A stretch of DNA of 64,000 bases from assembly GCA_016389475.1 (NCBI GenBank), contig GCA_016389475.1_3042.1; one strand, given 5' to 3'. Position 1 is the first letter of the stretch. The number at the start of each line of letters is the position of its first letter. The notes beneath the pieces are model-generated. The model was not told the origin of the DNA, ran no database searches, and saw only the letters and a program-made list of their open reading frames with translations. The stretch is from a phage. Of the stretch, positions 37,517 through 37,972 are shown piece by piece. Both the position numbers and the translations under genes were made by a program.

Positions 37517-37972
37517 TTATTTTAAATCATCTGCCCAATCGAATTTAAGAGGCTCTTTGTATTCACGATCTAATACGACCGGAATTTGTACATCACCGCT
37601 AAATGATAAGGGCCCAACATTATAAGACAATGTTATATGCGGTGTGTAATCATCAAAATCATGTGTAGCACCTAGTGCCCGCGCATACATGTGTCGACAG
37701 CGCAAATATTCAGAATCTAGTACAAGTACAAGAGTAGATCCATCTTGTGTTTTCCATACTTCTAAATGTCCAGAAGAAGCTACTTCAAAACTTCCGCTTG
37801 ATGGAACATATGGAACATTTACTCTCGAATAACATATAGTCGAATGAATTTTTTCTCTAGGAACTGGATTAGGAACACGTAAAGAGCGCTGAAGTTCTTC
37901 CAGCGCATCAAGTGTTAATTCTGAAAACTTAGCTGCTACATAAAGACCCGTTGAAAAGTCTTTAAATTCCAT
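37517..37972 (-). CDS. 57B: 57B protein, 2H-family phosphodiesterase (Acb1-like anti-CBASS nuclease)
   Basis: 151 aa; two H-x-T/S motifs (KIHSTICY and TPHITLSY) typical of 2H phosphoesterases; position before 57A. Confidence 0.7.

Follow-up and report, generated by a model that had tools for sequence, protein, structure and literature searches.

Hobbs et al. (2022) purified the product of T4 gene 57B by activity-guided fractionation as a 3'3'-cGAMP-degrading enzyme and named it Acb1 (PMC9117128). Its substrates include 3'3'-cGAMP as well as cUA and cAAA; cGG is not degraded, and cA4 and 3'2'-cGAMP resist cleavage (PMC9117128). The H44/T46/H113/T115 tetrad performs metal-independent acid-base catalysis via a cyclic phosphate intermediate, cutting 3' of adenosine, and the H44A/H113A enzyme is catalytically dead; Y12, W74, F107 and W147 make stacking contacts with the bases, E141 reads the adenine N6, and a C-terminal lid (residues 145–152) shuts over the ligand (PMC9117128). 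Acb1 prevents activation of the effectors Cap5, Cap4 and CapV, and T4 delta-acb1 suffers a >300-fold loss of replication on CBASS hosts (PMC9117128). Activity appears ~15 min post infection (PMC9117128), consistent with the middle/late class to which transcriptome compilations assign 57B/acb1. In a T4 transposon library, insertions in 57B were depleted only on the CBASS host (HIDEN-SEQ, bioRxiv 10.1101/2025.11.20.689424). Guard systems of the Panoptes type sense the depletion of decoy cyclic nucleotides, and phages escape Panoptes through acb1 mutation (PMC13577387).

A counterpart of this gene had been proposed from inspection of a 64,000-nt stretch of phage DNA, here called the window. Positions 37517–37972 of its minus strand hold an ATG-to-TAA open reading frame of 151 codons plus stop, and a regular-expression scan of the protein returned exactly two H-x-[TS] motifs, just as the original prediction had described: H43-S44-T45 within 'HSTI' (codons 37838–37846, minus strand) and H112-I113-T114 within 'HITL' (codons 37631–37639, minus strand). 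While two such tripeptides alone could occur by chance, homology to Acb1 could not. Alignment to T4 57B (NP_049750.1), the check that had been suggested at the outset, found 150 of 151 residues identical (99.3%, BLASTP). Residue numbers in the window protein equal the T4 numbers minus one, and both motifs align with the published catalytic pairs H44/T46 and H113/T115; the original prediction had described their spacing as that of 2H phosphoesterases. All nine residues named in the T4 work (Y12, H44, T46, W74, F107, H113, T115, E141 and W147, T4 numbering) are present, among them the four nucleobase-stacking aromatics and the adenine-N6-reading glutamate. In an alignment of nine sequences, comprising the window protein, T4, Erwinia phage FBB1 and six distant homologues with identities down to 30%, and spanning Straboviridae genera as well as the jumbo Salicola phage SCTP-2, the H/T/H/T tetrad and Y12 were invariant, and positions 74 and 107 were aromatic in every sequence.

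Profile searches led to the same family. The Pfam model PF23474 ('Anti-CBASS protein Acb1') matched from the first to the last of its 144 positions with 200.8 bits (E=1.1e-59; Pfam cut-off 27 bits), and a phmmer search of PDB sequences retrieved 7T26/7T27, the Acb1 structures of Erwinia phage FBB1, over residues 8–148 (E=1.3e-61). The protein thus matches both the family model at full length and experimentally characterised members. No NCBIfam model matched either this protein or the Vs.4 homologue discussed below. A single-sequence AlphaFold2 model reached a mean pLDDT of 37.5 and a pTM of 0.29, too low for use; the 2H fold was assigned by sequence homology to 7T26, a solved structure of this fold (67% identity). 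Taken together, the window gene is almost certainly the orthologue of T4 57B and encodes Acb1 with one residue changed. The original prediction, which was also correct in equating T4 57B with Acb1 (PMC9117128), had concluded that the phage very likely carries a counter-defence gene for degrading cyclic oligonucleotides, an interpretation that the near-complete T4 identity and the retained catalytic residues support. For T4, experiments of the kind it proposed are already on record (PMC9117128).

The genomic setting is that of a Tequatrovirus, as judged from a 2.1-kb query around 57B that was 100% identical to Shigella phage ESh32 and at least 95% identical to >430 Tequatrovirus records. T4 proteins mapped to the region with their order and orientation unchanged from T4 (trna.2, trna.3, trna.4, ipI, 57B, 57A, 1, 3, 2, 4). 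The gene hence occupies the 57B position, as had been claimed, between homologues of ipI (37159–37443, minus strand; Pfam IPI_T4) and of 57A (37972–38202, minus strand), the tail-fibre assembly chaperone gene, whose product matches Pfam GP57 with 171 bits and is 98.7% identical to T4 57A. More generally, the order 3-1-57A-57B is retained in phages of five other Straboviridae genera (Krischvirus, Tulanevirus, Lazarusvirus, Schizotequatrovirus and Pseudotevenvirus). Relative to T4 57B, the window gene carries six synonymous codon changes and one non-synonymous change, and relative to phage 235Ecol030PP seven synonymous and none non-synonymous, a synonymous-heavy pattern in line with a functional protein under purifying selection.

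Direct reading of the sequence revealed that the TAA stop of 57A overlaps the ATG of 57B in a TAATG junction, and a junction of this kind also joins gene 1 to 57A; these arrangements suggest that genes 1, 57A and 57B are co-transcribed and translationally coupled. On the far side of 57B, the intergenic region towards ipI (37444–37516, minus strand) contains a sequence resembling a T4 early promoter (TTTACA-17-TACTAT, with TG) that overlaps a hairpin with a 13-bp stem directly past the 57B stop, folding at –17.8 kcal/mol (z = –3.4). An element of the form TTTCACAAAGTTGTTTACAT...GTGATACTATTACC is shared, on the minus strand, between this region and the ipI–trna.4 interval (37083–37160). In both copies, the early-promoter-like TTTACA-17-TACTAT overlaps a stable hairpin (–21.1 kcal/mol and z = –4.0 in the second copy), and both are near-identical in T4. 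Scans with sigma-70 and terminator consensus sequences yielded no more sites than shuffled sequence, and TATAAATA late-promoter motifs were not enriched (14 found vs. 10.6 expected); consequently, no promoter is firmly assigned to 57B. On the coding strand, the TATAAATA closest upstream lies at 38558–38565, inside gene 1.

Existing annotation points to a different enzyme, in that T4 57B and many of its orthologues bear the RefSeq name 'RNA ligase', and PHROG 755, which the window protein matched with E=1.2e-67, is described in the same words. Were these names correct, 57B would be a LigT-like 2'-5' RNA ligase or an RNA-repair enzyme. The protein does show some similarity to the Pfam model 2_5_RNA_ligase2 (PF13563), as would be expected from shared 2H superfamily ancestry, yet the match covers residues 80–124 only and its 13.5 bits (E=0.073) fall far under the 27-bit gathering threshold, compared with 200.8 bits for the Acb1 model. 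Moreover, T4 57B was found directly through its cleavage of cGAMP, and its deletion abolishes this activity in infected lysates (PMC9117128). We thus consider an RNA ligase very improbable and rejected the label given the sub-threshold score of the generic 2H/LigT model; it seems to stem from earlier automated naming based on the fold. Still less probable is a role for 57B alongside 57A in tail-fibre assembly. Such a partnership could be read from the overlapping stop and start codons, from the synteny of the 57A–57B pair across Straboviridae genera and from the historical treatment of both genes as one 'gene 57' region. However, T4 delta-acb1 grows like wild type when CBASS is absent (PMC9117128), 57B was non-essential on K-12 in the T4 transposon library (bioRxiv 10.1101/2025.11.20.689424), and the window version is predicted to be a complete 2H enzyme with its active site intact.

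With Acb1 as the preferred reading, the sole difference from T4 57B merits closer attention. F144 of the window protein corresponds to L145 of T4 (L145F), the first lid residue, two residues ahead of the stacking W147. The lid itself is full-length (residues 144–151, T4 145–152; codons 37520–37543, minus strand) and agrees with T4 at seven of eight residues, including the base-stacking W146 (T4 W147). Leucine occupies the lid column in most homologues of the nine-sequence alignment. The exact phenylalanine-bearing C-terminus of 31 residues was found in 20 phage records, compared with 473 records differing by one mismatch, making F145 a recurrent minority allele. The position of this only substitution and its minority status, together with the reported escape from Panoptes through acb1 mutation (PMC13577387), could be taken to indicate a weakened or specificity-shifted Acb1, possibly selected to trigger Panoptes-type guards less. 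We regard this as a slim prospect: leucine to phenylalanine is a conservative hydrophobic change, the named catalytic and ligand-contact residues are all intact in the F145 protein, and the allele recurs in ~20 deposited phage records in which the gene is otherwise conserved. It is just as improbable that L145F in these Tequatrovirus records alters substrate range or kinetics, for instance by sparing Panoptes decoys while CBASS signals are destroyed, in which case it would represent a natural specificity-tuned variant in the arms race between Acb1 and Panoptes. The substitution is conservative and expected to be neutral.

By analogy with the published T4 and FBB1 experiments, and given 99.3% identity to the T4 enzyme, the window protein would share with Acb1 its chemistry, its range of substrates and its anti-CBASS phenotype. 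It would be produced during infection as a small, metal-independent 2H phosphodiesterase whose U-shaped pocket binds the cyclic di- and trinucleotides with 3'-5' linkages that host CD-NTases produce (3'3'-cGAMP, cUA, cAAA and cAAG). Aromatic residues would stack on the bases and the C-terminal lid would cover the ligand; under catalysis by the HxT/HxT tetrad (H43, T45, H112 and T114), the 2'-OH of adenosine would then attack the neighbouring phosphodiester. Hydrolysis of the resulting 2',3'-cyclic phosphate would leave a linear 3'-phosphate. With the signal destroyed, CBASS effectors would stay inactive, and the phage would thereby avoid abortive infection.

Under this scheme, the phage is predicted to break CBASS signalling that relies on 3'-5' cyclic di- and trinucleotides containing adenosine; cA3-based type III CRISPR signalling is possibly a further target of its Acb1. 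The same activity would expose the phage to guard systems that sense the loss of decoy cyclic nucleotides, as inferred from the Panoptes work, so that an intact acb1 would be both an asset and a liability. Both the Acb1/Acb2 counter-defence and the Panoptes liability are already established for T4 and close relatives; likewise, the gene itself is known and experimentally characterised in T4, and the phage has sequenced relatives that are almost identical to it. In practical terms, the assignment serves correct annotation, as most GenBank/RefSeq records for the gene still read 'hypothetical protein' or 'RNA ligase'. The identical protein of phage 235Ecol030PP, for its part, is already annotated as 'anti-CBASS protein Acb1' in its GenBank record.

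Roughly 10 kb from acb1, the window encodes a homologue of T4 Vs.4 (26927–27190, minus strand), whose gene is named acb2 in the literature for a cyclic-nucleotide sponge. The homologue is 95.5% identical to T4 Vs.4, matches the Pfam Acb2/Tad1 hairpin domain with 71 bits and retrieves the PDB entry 7UQ2 ('Vs.4') with E=1.7e-53. The phage thus has a sequestering anti-CBASS protein in addition to the degrading one, and Acb1 with the nearby sponge gene would form a two-part counter-defence.

Comparison with T4 also revealed several differences elsewhere in the window. The vs.5 and vs.8 homologues (both minus strand) each aligned as two tblastn pieces (27404–27354 and 27355–27230, together spanning 27230–27404; and 28754–28659 and 28690–28103, together spanning 28103–28754), which points in each case to a frameshift or an indel when compared with T4; the longest vs.8 reading frame measures 196 aa vs. 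219 aa in T4. Where T4 carries denV, ipII and ipIII, the vs.8–e interval (28754–29349) instead contains a single 157-aa ORF (28784–29257, minus strand) that matches Pfam DUF7412 with 317 bits and whose start, MKTYQEF, resembles that of the ipI ORF, MKTYQEFTS. Homologues of denV, ipII and ipIII were found nowhere in the window (tblastn, E<1e-5). Between e.8 and the tRNA cluster lie two minus-strand ORFs without a Pfam match (33883–34356, 157 aa; 34738–35088, 116 aa), the former of which begins with MKSYTQFLNEA, again resembling the ipI start, and may encode another internal protein.

The tRNA cluster (35107–36127, minus strand) comprises 11 genes (Arg, His, Asn, Tyr, Met, Thr, Ser, Pro, Gly, Leu and Gln) compared with eight in T4, the extras being His, Asn and Tyr. 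The homing-endonuclease gene segB, located in T4 between tRNA-Arg and the remaining tRNAs, was not detected in the window. Finally, the homologues of tk.4 (24777–25241, minus strand; the T4 annotation gives a phosphatase carrying an A1pp motif) and trna.3 (36518–36910, minus strand) are only 57% and 55% identical to T4, respectively, within a neighbourhood that is otherwise 90–100% identical, which suggests local replacement or rapid evolution of these genes.

Among the described systems, T4 Acb1 (57B, NP_049750.1) shares with the window gene its genomic position, catalytic tetrad, ligand-contact residues and the downstream intergenic element. The T4 annotation begins one ATG earlier (MMEFK; ATGATG) and is consequently 152 rather than 151 aa long; this extra start codon is missing from the window because the 57A–57B junction reads TAATG instead of ATGATG. 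The neighbouring 57A differs slightly in length as well (76 aa vs. 80 aa in T4). Acb1 of Erwinia phage FBB1 (PDB 7T26, apo; 7T27, with 3'3'-cGAMP) is more distant, at 67% identity over residues 8–148, and shares the HxT/HxT tetrad, the aromatic stacking positions and, as assigned by homology, the 2H fold, albeit with F and Y in place of T4 W74 and F107 and with a one-residue insertion after the Q-S-G-N turn; the crystal construct lacks the N-terminal seven residues. The wider 2H phosphoesterase superfamily, including LigT 2'-5' RNA ligase and the CPDases, resembles Acb1 in its two HxT/S motifs and in acid-base chemistry via a 2',3'-cyclic phosphate. Acb1 is set apart from LigT by its substrate, a cyclic oligonucleotide immune signal rather than RNA ends, and by similarity to the generic 2H/LigT model that stays below threshold. 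Acb2 (T4 Vs.4), encoded in the same window, likewise counters CBASS by removing the signal, but its fold is unrelated to that of Acb1, and it sequesters the signal without cleaving it.
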